A stretch of DNA of 36,157 nucleotides from the IMG/VR virus record IMGVR_UViG_3300037249_000225, positions 1-36,157 of that record; one strand, written 5' to 3'. Position numbers and translations under genes: made by a program. The notes under the pieces are model-generated. The model had not been told where the DNA came from. It ran no database searches and saw only the letters and a program-made list of their open reading frames with translations. Positions 12,487 to 15,481 of this stretch are shown here, piece after piece. Positions within the stretch are counted from its first letter, which is position 1. The number at the start of each line of letters is the position of its first letter. The DNA is from a virus.

Positions 12487-12657
12487 TTATTGATGTGTTT
12501 TTTCAGATTCTCCTGCATAGATTTTTATTTTACACTCATTCAAACGCTTGCAAGCCTCTTCGAGCTCGTTTATTTTGCATTTAACTTCGTCCAGCAGGGT
12601 CAGATACTCTTCTGCGTTTTCTATTGATAATTTTACTGAAAGTTCTTCAACTTTCAT
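12487..12657 (-). CDS. Unannotated 56-aa helical ORF (MKVEELSVKLSIENAEEYLTLLDEVKCKINELEEACKRLNECKIKIYAGESEKTHQ)
   Basis: Hand-translated, below the ORF-track size cutoff. Perfect SD AAAGGAGG lies 8 nt upstream of the ATG. The sequence is AT-rich. Confidence 0.6.
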   Translation of the reverse strand: MKVEELSVKLSIENAEEYLTLLDEVKCKINELEEACKRLNECKIKIYAGESEKTHQ

Positions 12658-12678
12658 TTTGTCAGCCTCCTTTTTGGC

Positions 12679-12709
12679 AAAAGAAAAGCGCTTACCGAAG
12701 TAGGCGCTT
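12679..12709 (-). terminator. Intrinsic terminator directly after the DUF3800-like gene
   Basis: On the minus strand: aagcgc-c-tac-TTCG-gta-a-gcgctt followed by TTCTTTT. Confidence 0.55.
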
Positions 12710-12715
12710 GAAAAA

Positions 12716-13414
12716 TTATGGTAAATACTTAATATTCATGTGTCGATGTTCAATTTCATATGAATAATCATTATTATTCAAAGATATATAATAAATTTTA
12801 TTGGCAACTATATCAGCAGCACGAACAAGAACTTTTGAAGCAGAATTACAAAATTTTAAATTGACACATCTCATCTTCGGAAATAAAGGTTCATAAAATA
12901 TATTCCAATGATAGTTATATGTACCAAATTTCAATTCCTGTTCCAATGCTTCTCGTAACTCATATCTCCCATTTGTTGCAGTCGTATGTTCATCTACAAA
13001 GAAATAGATATTTTCAACATCTGATGCCAAAAACAGCCCATTTTCTATCATTTTAGCCAGCGCATATTTTACACCTATTTTGTAAGCGTAATCTAAATAC
13101 CGCTGTTTAGTTTTCTTGTTATCAAAAATACTATCAAGCATGTTTTTCTGTGAGACAACTACGCCAAATTTGTAATATTCATTAAGTGCACGGTACAACT
13201 TATTCTTATTCTTATTTGATACGGCAGATGCTTTTACTTCTTTGTCCCTATCGACAGCGCCGCTTGTATATATCGCTTTTTCGGCTTCTCTATATTTCCT
13301 TATGCATTCATCTTTGCTTTCTTTGTCAAGGAAAATCAGTCCTCCGAAAACAAACTTTTCATTATGGGTTTTATCGAGTACTCCGGATTCATCAGAATAA
13401 ACAAATAAATTCAC
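12716..13414 (-). CDS. DUF3800-like protein (232 aa from the GTG start)
   Basis: The N-terminal NLFVYSDESG...FVFGGLIF and the C-terminal SKVLVRAADIVANKIY resemble the two conserved DUF3800 motifs as I recall them. The ORF-track start (13546) would place a promoter and a terminator hairpin inside the CDS. GTG at 13414 follows GGTGGTGA and gives the usual short N-terminus. Confidence 0.65.
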   Translation of the reverse strand: MNLFVYSDESGVLDKTHNEKFVFGGLIFLDKESKDECIRKYREAEKAIYTSGAVDRDKEVKASAVSNKNKNKLYRALNEYYKFGVVVSQKNMLDSIFDNKKTKQRYLDYAYKIGVKYALAKMIENGLFLASDVENIYFFVDEHTTATNGRYELREALEQELKFGTYNYHWNIFYEPLFPKMRCVNLKFCNSASKVLVRAADIVANKIYYISLNNNDYSYEIEHRHMNIKYLP

Positions 13415-13430
13415 TGTTTCACCACCACTA

Positions 13431-13453
13431 ATAAAAAAGCCGCCGAAGCGGCC
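13431..13453 (-). terminator. Intrinsic terminator (gccgc-TTCG-gcggc + TTTTTTATT) 17 nt upstream of the DUF3800 start
   Basis: Read on the minus strand: ggCCGCttcgGCGGcttttttatt. Confidence 0.6.
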
Positions 13454-13522
13454 CCTGTATGCCGACGACAGAGAATGCCGCTTAAGCGTTAGCTCAGTCA
13501 TACAGGTGTACAGCGTATTCCT
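13431..13522 (-). ncRNA. Structured ~90-nt leader or small RNA between the promoter and the terminator
   Basis: An 8-bp outer helix (cctgtatg / catacagg) encloses a cgcttaagcg palindrome and is followed by the terminator hairpin. There is no SD-preceded start codon inside. Confidence 0.35.
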
Positions 13523-13529
13523 ACCTGCA

Positions 13530-13556
13530 ATTATATTATACACCATTTGATGTCAA
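13530..13556 (-). promoter_or_regulatory. Sigma-70-like promoter (TTGACA-N15-TATAAT) for the cargo cassette
   Basis: On the minus strand: cttTTGACAtcaaatggtgtataaTATAATtgc. The -35 is at 13556..13551 and the -10 at 13535..13530, with a second overlapping TATAAT at 13540..13535. Confidence 0.5.
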
Positions 13557-13638
13557 AAGTATACATACAAAATCGACAAAAATTTAATTCAAATTCTATG
13601 GATTTTGTTCAACCCGCTCACGGAGTGCGTAAGTTAAA

Positions 13639-13818
13639 TTATTGTTTTCCTATATAGTCCAAAATGCTTTCACACATTATACCCGCACTATTTGGCTTGT
13701 AATTTTCATCTAAGCAGTGAAGCGTTAGATAGTCACCAACCTTGTCTTCTATTTGATCTAAATCAGAATTAGGGTCAATCCCGATAGACTTCAAAAAATT
13801 AATTTGTTCCCTATTCAT
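13639..13818 (-). CDS. Small acidic protein (59 aa), candidate immunity protein for the MuF C-terminal toxin domain
   Basis: ATG at 13818 follows SD GGGGAGG and overlaps the MuF stop by 8 nt. The gene is AT-rich like the MuF C-terminal domain. Function is inferred from position only. Confidence 0.5.
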   Translation of the reverse strand: MNREQINFLKSIGIDPNSDLDQIEDKVGDYLTLHCLDENYKPNSAGIMCESILDYIGKQ

Positions 13819-15481
13819 TGAGATCAACCTCCCCATATTTTTTCAGCTTATCTTTACCGGTTGGCCAAGCCGTTGGGATTACTCCAGTATCAGGATTTAT
13901 ATTAACTGTTGTGGTTTTCCCAATAAATCTTTGACTTGGTCTACCCAATTCATCAACAACAGTATCACGAAAATGGATAGGGTGTGTCAATGCATTGATC
14001 ATTCCTTCAACACTCAGTTCCCTTTGTTCTATGCGCTCATTTACATGCTGAGATAATTCAGTAACAGTAACTCCACTTGTTGTTATTGTTCCTATTATAC
14101 CACCATTCTCGGCAGTTGTCAACTGTTCCTGCGAGTTTTCTGCCGCTGACTTTTCCGCTGAATTCTCCGTCGGTGTTTGCTCGGCTGCTTTATCGGCATT
14201 CTCCGGAAGTGCGTTCATCTCCGCGATCTGCCGGTCAAGTTCCCGCTCGATATCCTCTATCGAACGCCCGTCGAGAAGCCTGTCGATCTCCGCCTGAACA
14301 TCCTCGTCAGACTCCATGACCGCGCCTATCGTACAGCAGCAGGTCGGGTGCATCGGTGGGAGATTAACGCCCACAACCGCATCGGCTATCTTGAAACGCT
14401 GCCCGTCGAGATCGTCGCAGGTGTCACAGGCTCCGTTGCTCTCACCCGCAGACATGAATTCGTACTCGTCAAATCCCGCGTCGGCAAGCCCTTTGAGTTC
14501 TGCCTGATTGGTGCAGTAGGTGTGCTCTGTACGCACTACCCGTGCCGCCTGATACATACCCGAGCCGAATTTATCGCGTATCTCCGCTGCCATTTCGGCT
14601 TCGCTTGCACCTGTCAGCTCGCCGTTCAGCAGTACCCTTTTGACTTCCCGCGAGAGCTCGTCCGTGTTGTCCCAGATGCGTTCCGAGAAGTTCACACCTT
14701 TCCAGTCGTGGTCGATTATCTCATTTACCGCCTTTGTGTTGGTCAGTGCAAAGCTGTCCATTATCCCGCGGTCGGTCGTCGGCGTGAAGTCCCGTATCGG
14801 CTCATCTGCCCGGGGCATCGTGTTTATCGGTGTAGGCGCTTTTGCGGGAGCCGCCGCAGGATCGAGGTCGATAACAACAGCTTCGGAAGGCGGCAGGCGT
14901 TTTGCTTCATCGAGCGTGATGTTGTACGCCTTTTCGATCTCTGTTTGCAGGAACCGCCGGTCAGCGGCGATCTCCCCGCGTGCTATGTTTTCAAGCGTTT
15001 CCTGCGCGTTCTTCGCGATCTGCTCGGCACGCTGCATCCGGTAGCGATACGCCGGCGCGGATATCTCCGCGAGTATGCGGGTCTTTTCCTCGCTGTCGGT
15101 CATGCTCTCCGCAATTGTGCGGAGGTTGTCGGCAATGCTGCGGTCGTAAACTACGTGTCCGAGAAGATCTTTGGCGTCCTTCTGCGTCAAGCCAAACGCG
15201 CTCTGATAACCCGCAAAAACGTTCTGCACCTGCCGCGCAAGTTTCTCGGCAGCGTGTGCATACGGGACCGCGAGAACTGCGGCAACACGTTCGGTCTGCA
15301 CCAGCGCGGCATCATCGAGTATCGCGAGACGTGCCGTCCAGTAAGCCTTGTTAGCCTTCATCAGAGCTTCTGCAATTTTCGCCCGTGTGAGCGGCTTTGA
15401 CTTTTGCAGCTGCCGCAGGGTCTCCGCTATTATCCGGTCATATTCTTCATCGAGCTGCGCCCTTACCTCGTCTTCATTCAT
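13811..15481 (-). CDS. MuF/SPP1 gp7-family minor head protein fused to a C-terminal ~95-aa toxin-like domain
   Basis: MuF core: RVVRTEHTYCTNQAE...CDTCDDLDGQRF...NLPPMHPTCCCT. It is followed by a low-complexity linker (AEQTPTENSAEKSAAENSQEQ). The final domain is LSQHVNERIEQRELSVEGMINAL...GRPSQRFIGKTTTVNINPDTGVIPTAWP. Confidence 0.8.
   Translation of the reverse strand: MNEDEVRAQLDEEYDRIIAETLRQLQKSKPLTRAKIAEALMKANKAYWTARLAILDDAALVQTERVAAVLAVPYAHAAEKLARQVQNVFAGYQSAFGLTQKDAKDLLGHVVYDRSIADNLRTIAESMTDSEEKTRILAEISAPAYRYRMQRAEQIAKNAQETLENIARGEIAADRRFLQTEIEKAYNITLDEAKRLPPSEAVVIDLDPAAAPAKAPTPINTMPRADEPIRDFTPTTDRGIMDSFALTNTKAVNEIIDHDWKGVNFSERIWDNTDELSREVKRVLLNGELTGASEAEMAAEIRDKFGSGMYQAARVVRTEHTYCTNQAELKGLADAGFDEYEFMSAGESNGACDTCDDLDGQRFKIADAVVGVNLPPMHPTCCCTIGAVMESDEDVQAEIDRLLDGRSIEDIERELDRQIAEMNALPENADKAAEQTPTENSAEKSAAENSQEQLTTAENGGIIGTITTSGVTVTELSQHVNERIEQRELSVEGMINALTHPIHFRDTVVDELGRPSQRFIGKTTTVNINPDTGVIPTAWPTGKDKLKKYGEVDLNE

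Follow-up and report, generated by a model that had tools for sequence, protein, structure and literature searches.

Introduction

Morons, reportedly set out by Juhala and Hendrix in 2000 for lambdoid phages, have a promoter and a terminator of their own, deviate in base composition, occupy a place between two genes that are neighbours in a related phage, and are expected to be expressed from the prophage. Type III toxin-antitoxin (TA) systems, said to have been described by Fineran in 2009 and by Blower in 2012 and to include the abortive infection systems ToxIN, CptIN and TenpIN, comprise one promoter, a non-coding RNA (ncRNA), a terminator and a nuclease gene reached by read-through; their RNA and protein co-vary, they reside on mobile elements, and phages that escape ToxIN carry an RNA named pseudo-ToxI. 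In this study, we analysed a viral DNA stretch of 36,157 nucleotides (nt; positions 1 to 36,157 of the IMG/VR record IMGVR_UViG_3300037249_000225), hereafter called the window, in which an AT-rich segment begins inside the gene for the minor head protein MuF. Taken as a whole, this segment is probably best explained as a composite accessory region between the MuF and scaffold genes, made up of a toxin cassette and a nested moron that encodes a DUF3800-I RNA and a DUF3800 protein. Coordinates refer to the window, and features lie on its minus strand unless marked (+).

Polymorphic toxins built on MuF, with small open reading frames (ORFs) downstream, were described in temperate phages in 2017 (Jamet et al., PMC5576092; also PMC11699363), as were fusions of MuF to BECR-fold domains (MuF-PBECR; PMC5512222), and the only characterised MuF toxins are Apk2 and Bxa (PMC11699363). 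A 2026 preprint equates DUF4258 with Ntox49 and assigns it to the BECR fold's colicin-like branch (10.64898/2026.08.28.747851). In Rhs elements, internal promoters just upstream of the toxin tips have been shown experimentally (Starsta et al. 2020, PMC7043789). Type VII retrons use DUF3800 as their effector, and earlier structure-based work calls the protein ribonuclease (RNase) H2-like (PMC7736814, PMC10910872); it also occurs as an accessory protein at Cas12a2/a3 and Cas13 loci, Csx32 among them (PMC7736814, PMC10910872, PMC13594972, 10.64898/2026.08.25.746378). Clades of this family are paired with 11 unrelated RNA motifs (PMC5737381).

The locus in the window resembles the known MuF toxins in having a MuF N-terminus after the portal gene, a variable toxin C-terminus, a small ORF next to it, a temperate phage as carrier and a predicted BECR RNase. 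It differs from them in that its toxin domain is DUF4258/Ntox49-like and undetected by Pfam, that an unrelated second cassette is nested behind the immunity gene, and that a consensus promoter, not mentioned in the papers on MuF toxins and polyvalent proteins that we consulted, lies inside the gene at the MuF/toxin junction. Like the retron and CRISPR-associated proteins, which are known from inside defence systems, the DUF3800 protein of the window is RNase H2-like and has a specific non-coding nucleic acid partner; unlike them, it comes without a reverse transcriptase, CRISPR array or tetratricopeptide repeat domain, and its partner is a plain small RNA (sRNA). That RNA shares with the published DUF3800-I motif a full-length model match, a 3' intrinsic terminator, an adjacent DUF3800 gene and the status of an orphan in function, whereas in the window it forms part of an insertion of 926 bp in a phage structural operon, for which a relative provides the empty site. 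To the published description our survey adds a fixed layout (promoter, RNA, terminator, ribosome-binding site, GTG or TTG start), prophage moron sites and solo RNAs in phages. Both modules belong to described families; what is new is the evidence on how they are built and moved.

An AT-rich segment that begins inside the MuF gene

In a sliding profile, GC content drops from 0.53-0.60 to 0.29-0.40 across ~12500-14100. The initial annotation of the window had reported an AT-rich stretch at 12487-14100 whose left edge coincides with the boundary between the linker and the C-terminal domain inside the MuF gene; a two-state fit over 11000-16000 places the segment at 12484-14107 (GC 0.350, against 0.546 outside it; log-likelihood gain 86), a few bases away from that proposal at most and in agreement with its left edge. 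This is the longest and deepest low-GC run of the 36-kb contig (mean GC 0.495, standard deviation 0.057, in 300-nt windows). GC at third codon positions (GC3) is 0.23 in the C-terminal part of the MuF gene, 0.34 in ORF59, 0.27 in the DUF3800 gene and 0.32 in ORF56, against 0.65 in MuF codons 1-459, 0.66 in ORF127, 0.62 in the scaffold and portal genes and 0.66 in the capsid gene, and it falls from 0.65 to 0.23 inside the single MuF gene. The combined GC and codon profile, which the annotation had named as a check, is sharply non-flat.

All five elements listed for the segment were found, every one of them on the minus strand: the MuF C-terminal domain (amino acids 460-556; 13811-14104), ORF59 (13639-13818), a promoter with structured leader and terminator, the DUF3800 gene (12716-13417) and ORF56 (12487-12657). 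The right edge is marked by a terminator-like hairpin (12455-12484) with an 11-bp stem (-18.9 kcal/mol, z = -4.0). On the other side, the resident N-terminal part of MuF (amino acids 1-459; 14105-15481) is GC-rich and overlaps the upstream portal gene by 1 nt; the full MuF gene spans 15481-13811 (PF04233, 1e-12) and the SPP1-type portal gene 16848-15481 (PF05133, 1.8e-108).

The gap between MuF and scaffold genes varies among related phages

Relatives were found by protein-guided scans of IMG/VR, of rumen Clostridia and Ruminococcus genome bins and of metagenomes, in which the scans of IMG/VR and metagenomes with the portal or MuF N-terminal alignment yielded 4, 2 and 2 loci, some of them mutual duplicates. 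Six relatives make up the sample used here (L001, L006, L007, which equals L037, L029-31 and L036), and the phage relatives lie in rumen Clostridia genome bins. A megablast search with 10200-18120 against 50,697 GenBank phages gave no match, and distant blastn of the AT-rich segment against GenBank phages returned only a 114-nt DUF3800 fragment in the Streptococcus satellite Javan632.

At the amino acid level, the window is 72-77% identical to the six relatives in the portal protein, 66-75% in the scaffold protein and 77-85% in the capsid protein. The N-terminal part of MuF is also shared, at 56-70% identity over the six relatives; taken locus by locus, the values are 66-72% for L001, L005, L007, L008, L029 and L036 and 51-56% for L006. 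Its database matches are Pfam Phage_Mu_F (1e-12, amino acids 279-385) and, in PHROG, the minor head protein (3e-63). At the DNA level, homology with the window ends at ~14339 on the left and restarts at ~12017-12320 on the right. Between these points every relative is AT-rich, starting at the MuF linker and stopping shortly before the scaffold gene, but the content differs. L001 has an unrelated MuF C-terminus and a 137-amino acid ORF; L006 has another C-terminus, ORFs of 130 and 66 amino acids and a homologue of ORF127; L007 and L036 share a JAB-like MuF C-terminus, with different small ORFs; and L029-31 carry the toxin domain of the window (72% identity) and its 59-amino acid ORF (80%), followed directly by a homologue of ORF56. 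Five further related phage lineages (six loci) thus carry four different cassettes, and one lineage shares the toxin tip of the window. The DUF3800 gene is absent from all six relatives, and the four scanned with Rfam (L001, L006, L007 and L029) had no DUF3800-I match. In the comparison that the annotation had called for, the relatives thus agree with the window in portal, MuF N-terminus, scaffold and capsid and differ in what lies between; the site is variable, with alternative cargo, and on these alignments the gap between MuF and scaffold genes is a recombination hotspot of this phage lineage. The proposal of a horizontally exchanged accessory island therefore holds as far as variable cargo is concerned, but not as a single inserted island: a toxin/immunity cassette and a separate 926-bp moron, sitting in the terminator of that cassette, account for it. 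The suggested expression in the lysogen and a part in defence or competition would be in keeping with the promoters, the architecture and the context.

ORF56 likewise is AT-rich, as noted in the annotation, which had it as an element of the island, yet it is not cargo unique to this phage. It has the strong ribosome-binding site AAAGGAGG and resembles a small coiled-coil gene, and 56-amino acid homologues, 41-43% identical, occupy the same position in L007/L037 and L029-31; PHROG matches are weak and concern only families of unknown function. Together with the terminator at 12484-12455, ORF56 appears to belong to the lineage's own variable gap.

Several further observations concern the organization of this gap. 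A near-identical terminator, CAGCGCAC.CCT.CGGGTATGCGCTGTTTTTATG, follows three different immunity genes (L001:11520-11553, L006:4912-4947 and L007:11518-11550) and, judged by these alignments, is the conserved right boundary of the toxin/immunity cassette in L001, L006 and L007; the window and L029 have a diverged version of it. Behind the immunity gene lies a second variable slot that holds either an ORF56-type gene (window 12487-12657, L007:11566-11736, L029:5231-5401) or an unrelated small ORF with an IY[IL]DG motif (L006:4966-5166, L036:2069-2239), and L001 has neither. ORF127 (12425-12042; 127 amino acids), a GC-rich gene with an N-terminal transmembrane helix and a coiled coil, has a homologue among the relatives in L006 alone (60% identity), which makes it another variable gene of the gap, though one whose composition is not foreign. 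The MuF-scaffold gap of an unrelated phage whose toxin belongs to the same family (L026:6518-7495) holds a pRha-type regulator and three small ORFs, so the gap gathers accessory genes in other lineages too.

A predicted MuF-linked toxin domain and its candidate immunity gene

The architecture at the left side of the segment is that of MuF polymorphic toxins: a Phage_Mu_F N-terminus encoded next to the portal and terL genes, a variable toxin C-terminus, of which there are four different kinds among the six relatives, and a small downstream ORF of fewer than 150 amino acids. The description of the MuF C-terminal domain as toxin-like is borne out by a predicted BECR RNase fold and by its family, DUF4258. 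Profile searches with HMMER (E<=1e-3) found the domain in 635 representative clusters, at the C-terminus in all 150 listed, and the longer members tested had Phage_Mu_F or minor-capsid-2 N-termini in 10 of 10 cases. Most family members (37/43) match Pfam DUF4258 at E<=0.1, the best at 1e-7, with scattered matches to PBECR2, RegB, colicin D and colicin E5. The domain of the window itself gave no match to PF14076 (DUF4258) even at E<=10 and does not reach the gathering score, and by sequence is a divergent DUF4258/Ntox49 relative rather than a scored member.

The AlphaFold2 (AF2) model of the domain has a mean predicted local distance difference test score (pLDDT) of 91. The top Foldseek matches are the C-terminal domain of a sequence-specific ribonuclease (3ao9), the CdiA-CT of NC101, a toxin of a Salmonella TA system (7vd7), RelE and colicin E5; probabilities are 0.94-0.99 for the top five matches and 0.28-0.44 for RelE and colicin E5, with template modelling scores of 0.37-0.60 for all those named. 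Residues H19, R27, N69 and T81 are invariant, and a sequence search of the PDB with the toxin profile found nothing real. Amino acids 460-556 of MuF (97 residues) are therefore predicted, from sequence and model, to form a DUF4258/Ntox49-like, colicin-like BECR-fold RNase domain.

The start of ORF59 overlaps the MuF stop (ATGAATAG). The ORF finder gives 65 amino acids from 13836, the maximal ORF, but its 76 homologues are mostly 59 amino acids long, which supports the ATG at 13818 and the length given in the annotation. Pfam searches with the toxin domain, ORF59 and ORF56 returned nothing meaningful. The toxin/ORF59 pair co-occurs in three contexts: the window, L029-31 and a chromosomal orphan module (L032-34) near a PT-HINT gene and an integrase, in which the toxin is 49% and ORF59 71% identical. 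Because the pair recurs across the L029 lineage and this orphan module, ORF59 is likely the cognate immunity gene, and the toxin domain and ORF59 would form a MuF polymorphic-toxin cassette with predicted toxicity and neutralisation.

The MuF protein of L029 (L029:2645-5008; also in L030 and L031) has 787 amino acids, and an additional HEVGH zincin-like domain separates its MuF domain from the same BECR toxin. In this 'polyvalent protein'-style MuF, the junction promoter described below follows the zincin domain and directly precedes the toxin.

A 926-bp moron inserted within a terminator

In L029-31, the ORF59 homologue, a terminator and the ORF56 homologue are contiguous (50-nt gap), whereas the window has 926 bp more. 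Removal of 13613-12688 was the best-scoring deletion restoring collinearity with the empty site of L029, and the inserted cassette (12688-13613), with DUF3800-I and DUF3800, has a GC content of 0.32-0.41. The insertion separates the stem of the terminator behind the immunity gene from its U-tract. The remnant stem after ORF59 (13614-13633), which folds as a hairpin, aligns with the L029 stem CCGCCCACACCGTGAGCGG but is followed by GTTGAAC and not by TTTTCTTATGCC, and its U-tract is now 926 bp away. The terminator after the DUF3800 gene (12676-12709; fold -10.9 kcal/mol) has a stem from the cassette and a U-tract, TTTTCTTTTGCC, from the resident phage terminator; in L029 and L007, both this U-tract and the GCC..AAAGGAG downstream of it have aligned counterparts. 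With the hairpin of the RNA at 13456-13435 and this one at 12709-12676, the DUF3800 gene is indeed bracketed by terminators, as the annotation had it.

The cassette sits between genes that are adjacent in a related phage, with terminators, deviant GC content (0.32 against 0.55) and its own promoter, the spacer of which is atypical in the window. In these sequence features it is a textbook moron, one that would be expressed from the prophage, and it shares with the lambdoid morons all the traits given above for them. It differs from lambdoid morons in that the cargo is an sRNA-protein pair instead of a single protein gene and in that the insertion lies inside a terminator, between hairpin and U-tract. 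No target-site duplications or terminal inverted repeats were found around the insert, only an AGCG microhomology and an imperfect palindrome; a transposon-type insertion was rejected for lack of flanking repeats, and illegitimate or terminator-mediated recombination is favoured. The palindrome (13567-13608; imperfect, 21 nt, 76% complementary, without spacer) lies just upstream of the DUF3800-I promoter and is possibly an operator or a chance match.

The DUF3800-I RNA and an RNase H2-like protein

The consensus-like promoter, structured leader and terminator reported in the annotation are present at 13556-13428, with two amendments: the leader is the Rfam DUF3800-I RNA, and the promoter spacer of 15 nt is non-canonical. 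The RNA (RF02969; 13428-13535, including the terminator at 13456-13435) scored 78.2 bits against a gathering score of 44.2 in cmscan (E 1e-10) over positions 1-115 of the 115-position model, and all its consensus pairs are standard. Its terminator hairpin (-12.6 kcal/mol) is followed by U6. The promoter (13530-13556) has TTGACA at 13556-13551; TATAAT is present at 13540-13535 and again at 13535-13530, so that the spacer measures 10 or 15 nt.

The DUF3800 gene starts at the GTG at 13417 and encodes 233 amino acids, not the 276 of the maximal ORF; homologues (n of at least 1895) have 227-236. The protein matches PF12686 (3e-11, 44.6 bits against a threshold of 21) and phrog_30113 (4e-79). Among 49 sequences, D9, E10, D142, H144 and D202 are invariant and E143 is conserved in at least 90%. 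The AF2 model has a pLDDT of 93 and a predicted template modelling score of 0.91, and the top 23 Foldseek matches are RNase HII/H2, except for one RNase HIII (1eke, 3p83, 1uax and 3puf among them; E 4e-6 to 1e-3), the top RNase HII/H2 matches being archaeal and human. A PDB sequence search with the DUF3800 profile found nothing real. From sequence and model, the protein is predicted to be an RNase H2-like nuclease.

The U-tract of the DUF3800-I terminator ends 11 nt before the GTG, and the ribosome-binding site GGTGGTG follows directly. With no room for a separate promoter and the ribosome-binding site right after the U-tract, translation of DUF3800 requires read-through of the sRNA terminator, and from this arrangement the RNA should far exceed the protein.

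DUF3800-I cassettes and solo RNAs in other elements

In the loci of close DUF3800 homologues, the RNA lies on the same strand directly upstream and ends 2-17 nt before the ORF in 11/11 cases. The homologous cassettes have TTGACA-17-TATAAT at the same place before the RNA and a ribosome-binding site immediately after the U-tract, and five of eight aligned copies start with GTG or TTG. A pattern scan of IMG/VR identified 42 true DUF3800-I loci, 24 of which have DUF3800 106-127 nt downstream; these 24 cassettes have a GC content of 0.35 against 0.48 in their flanks. In prophages, cassettes are found between the lysin gene and either the integrase or the attachment site, with HicAB, a KilA-N/BstA_C gene or Ltp as neighbours; others lie upstream of terL in a satellite-like element beside a transfer-messenger RNA gene and in the Streptococcus satellite Javan632, and one is plainly chromosomal.

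The remaining 18 of the 42 viral copies have no DUF3800 ORF in the flanks examined. All eight solo RNAs tested are bona fide RF02969 members (70-94 bits). One of them, in a 155-kb viral contig (L043:1757-2003; 77.7 bits), lies between two tRNA genes, overlapping each by a few bases, with an IS605 OrfB/TnpB gene downstream, which suggests that it is expressed and processed within the tRNA array. Two others (L049, oriented 5362-8910; L050, oriented 10407-13084) stand immediately upstream of hicA-hicB and an integrase, and in both an extended 3' hairpin replaces the usual terminator; the RNA of L049 is preceded just upstream by genes for Abi_2 (abortive infection) and DUF1828. Another solo RNA follows an integrase. 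The occurrence of solo copies in phages implies that DUF3800-I is an autonomous sRNA gene and not merely a leader. In L047, a gene (oriented 9675-10502, minus strand) that is divergent from the solo RNA and has small ORFs on both sides encodes a 275-amino acid protein with a MuF-like PTHPNCRC motif and a C-terminal extension; this protein has no Pfam match.

A predicted promoter at the MuF/toxin junction

A scan for promoters revealed a perfect sigma-70 promoter (14094-14122), overlooked in the initial annotation, at the left edge of the AT-rich segment. It has a 12/12 match with an extended TG (TTGACA-17 nt-TGgTATAAT), lies in-frame inside the MuF gene and straddles the compositional boundary. 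L001, L006, L007, L029-31 and L036 also have this promoter at their MuF/toxin junction, equally perfect and with a spacer of 16 nt, whatever toxin follows. It is perfect in 7/7 phage loci and reaches 11/12 in the orphan module L032 (TTGACA-17-TGaTAAAAT). In 718 kb scanned, there were 29 perfect promoters, seven of them at MuF junctions of relatives, with the window's own as the eighth, and eight belonging to DUF3800-I; outside these two classes the background is ~1 per 50 kb.

In the window and in L032, the -35 hexamer makes up two codons, TTG-ACA (L-T), whereas L001, L006, L007 and L029 read it as gTT-GAC-Aat (V/L-D-N). Since it is read in two frames while the linker around it is unconserved, the hexamer is conserved as DNA. 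L001 and L007 are 94% identical up to the promoter and unrelated beyond it; the promoter is therefore also a recombination junction. The junction promoter would transcribe the toxin-encoding 3' part of the MuF gene together with ORF59, independently of the late operon. It probably expresses the immunity gene in lysogens while the late operon is silent, and it may be a general device that gives each swapped-in toxin cassette lysogenic expression of its immunity gene. As no in-frame start codon lies between the predicted transcription start and the catalytic histidine in the window, only ORF59 is expected to be translated from the junction transcript. In L001 and L006, an in-frame ATG (L001:10690-10700 and L006:4100-4110; peptide ETTEN[DG]ML) lies ~45 nt after the promoter, and free toxin might be translated there from the internal transcript, as in Rhs elements.

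The arrangement is like that of the Rhs internal promoters in its position inside the ORF of the delivery domain, before the toxin tip, with the downstream module expressed apart from the full-length gene. It differs in that the delivery protein is a phage capsid protein, that the in-frame start for free toxin is missing, so that probably only the immunity protein is made, and that promoter activity is predicted.

Proposed function and alternative explanations

We propose that the region works as two modules. In the first, the capsid-targeting domain of MuF is fused through a low-complexity linker to the predicted RNase toxin, followed by the translationally coupled, 59-amino acid candidate immunity gene, and this cassette is swapped among relatives by recombination at the conserved junction promoter. 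In the second, a promoter is followed by the DUF3800-I sRNA of ~100 nt with its terminator, then after 11 nt by the GTG-initiated DUF3800 gene and another terminator; the abundant structured RNA would bind and restrain, or license, a scarce metal-dependent nuclease. Superinfection would disturb the balance between RNA and protein and unleash the nuclease, and the outcome, to the benefit of the lysogen, would be abortive infection or superinfection exclusion in the manner of a type III TA system. The RNA, its promoter and terminator and the nuclease gene are passed on together, at sites where prophages carry their conflict genes. That the RNA restrains or licenses the RNase H2-like nuclease as a TA or abortive infection system of the lysogen, with the solo RNAs of phages as decoys, is a proposal by analogy that we hold tentatively. 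We are slightly more reserved about its broader form, in which DUF3800-I and DUF3800 would constitute an unrecognised class of RNA-protein TA or abortive infection systems carried as a ~0.9-kb moron in prophages and satellites, the solo RNAs would be antitoxin decoys like pseudo-ToxI, and the junction promoter would perhaps be a general immunity device.

The window has the layout described above for type III TA systems, and in 11/11 loci the terminator lies between the RNA and the nuclease gene with no room for a separate promoter; phages with the DUF3800-I RNA alone recall the pseudo-ToxI of escape phages. Other observations weigh against our interpretation. There is no tandem repeat in 13428-13556, only a single structured RNA, and the DUF3800 fold is RNase HII/H2-like and not of the ToxN/AbiQ or Kid-like type, so that membership among canonical type III systems was rejected, and both the toxicity of DUF3800 and its inhibition by the RNA are predicted. 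The promoter spacer of the window copy is 15 or 10 nt and not 17, and this copy may be weakly expressed or dependent on read-through from upstream. When the proteins of the segment were compared with PADLOC (2.0), neither DUF3800, the toxin domain nor ORF127 had a match, and the small ORFs matched only at chance level. For the toxin, Foldseek E-values are weak (0.04-1), though mutually consistent, and a 55%-identical toxin (L026, L028) is followed by a 66-amino acid ORF without detectable similarity to ORF59, so that the pairing with ORF59 is not universal. A conserved G-I-I peptide is encoded where the -10 element of the junction promoter lies, and it could be chiefly as a site of recombination that the junction as a whole is kept. 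Finally, in the original description of DUF3800-I (Weinberg et al. 2017, PMC5737381) the RNA showed no self-cleavage, and its authors had no function to suggest; our full-text literature search found no post-2017 functional study of DUF3800-I, drum or skipping-rope RNAs.

For the RNA-nuclease module, the plainest alternative is that DUF3800-I is only a cis-acting 5' leader, either a riboswitch or an attenuator autoregulated by the protein, and that DUF3800 is a housekeeping-type enzyme, for example an RNase H for primers or R-loops. The constant position of the RNA directly upstream on the same strand (11/11 close loci, 24/42 IMG/VR loci) agrees with such a role, as does the RNase HII/H2 fold, and a terminator 2-17 nt before the ORF in the 11 close loci necessarily gates expression. 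However, the 18 viral RNAs without DUF3800 nearby have their own terminator, one of them inside a tRNA array; no conserved antiterminator is evident in the Rfam consensus; the gene lies at moron or attachment-site-proximal positions and in satellites, not in replication modules; and retron and CRISPR systems have other DUF3800 proteins among their accessory components (PMC7736814, PMC10910872). On balance, a leader without further function seems unlikely to us. Far less probable still is an RNA-guided nuclease for which DUF3800-I would be the guide or scaffold, as in a mini-Argonaute or a TnpB-like system: although the fold of the protein is RNase H-like and Foldseek links it weakly to PIWI domains, and although it has an obligate RNA partner and kin tied to CRISPR loci (PMC10910872), it comprises only 233 amino acids without additional nucleic-acid-binding domains, and this idea was rejected because the aligned RNAs have no hypervariable, guide-like segment, their variation being compensatory within helices.

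For the region as a whole and its toxin cassette, three further explanations bear on the same data. MuF is a head-internal protein, as established for SPP1 gp7 and Mu gpF, so the MuF RNase might be packaged in the virion and injected with the DNA, acting against RNA-based defences of the host or in host takeover, with ORF59 guarding only the producing cell during assembly. MuF-BECR and MuF-zincin fusions have been so interpreted for 'polyvalent' phage proteins (PMC5512222), and the zincin-like HEVGH domain precedes the same RNase in L029; in the other direction, the toxin/ORF59 pair is also found as a chromosomal orphan beside a PT-HINT polymorphic-toxin gene, and a constitutive-looking immunity promoter fits protection of the lysogen. 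We regard the injected effector as the somewhat less probable role, and it is not mutually exclusive with that of a competition toxin. The junction 'promoter', for its part, might be a non-functional motif kept for homologous exchange of cassettes and for the G-I-I peptide, like VENN in CdiA. It does mark the exact end of homology between L001 and L007, and its -10 element overlaps G-I-I or D-I-I codons, but its TTGACA is kept in two reading frames that encode different residues, the extended -10 TG is kept, L032 retains TTGACA-17-TGaTAAAAT with different codons, perfect promoters are rare in the background and internal promoters before Rhs toxin tips are documented (PMC7043789); a motif of this kind is accordingly improbable. 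Lastly, low GC might reflect a local functional or mutational constraint instead of horizontal acquisition, as the AT-richness of the whole gap in all relatives, the shared ORF56 included, would allow. Yet the content of the relatives differs though their flanks are collinear, the drop in GC3 occurs within one gene, an empty-site relative exists and the same cassettes are found in unrelated elements, so that a constraint is extremely improbable and, on the comparative sequence data, already contradicted.

Other features of the window

The contig carries a tyrosine integrase gene (33270-34304, +), a helix-turn-helix (HTH) repressor-like gene (32755-33132, +), a primase/helicase gene and an endolysin gene; the integrase and the repressor mark it as a temperate phage, and the phage is of the siphovirus type. 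The terL gene lies at 18118-16850, and downstream of the variable gap follow the DUF4355 scaffold gene (11917-11318) and the capsid gene (11302-10205). A tRNA-Met gene (CAT) is located at 18673-18747, just upstream of the genes for the small and large terminase. The only other perfect TTGACA-N17-TATAAT of the contig (~33249-33221, minus strand) reads leftward between the HTH repressor-like gene and the integrase gene and may be part of the lysogeny switch. Two further low-GC genes look like extra moron-type cargo: a GNAT acetyltransferase gene by the integrase (34834-35433, +; GC 0.40) and an ORF of 146 amino acids without a Pfam match (20001-20441; GC 0.38).

Conclusions

DUF3800-I is among the few widespread bacterial ncRNAs that were flagged in 2017 as likely 'sophisticated' in function. 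The locus described here and the survey give a testable frame for it, in which RNA and nuclease travel together as a promoter-to-terminator moron, the RNA should far outnumber the protein, the sites are those of prophage cargo, and solo RNAs occur in phages. For MuF toxins, the junction promoter offers an explanation of how lysogens could express immunity with the late genes off, and it marks the exact junction at which cassettes are exchanged. The finding would gain in weight if defence turned out to be the role of the RNA-nuclease module, or if MuF toxins in general were found to have the junction promoter; if neither idea holds, the region would still be a clean case of nested modular exchange in a phage structural operon.

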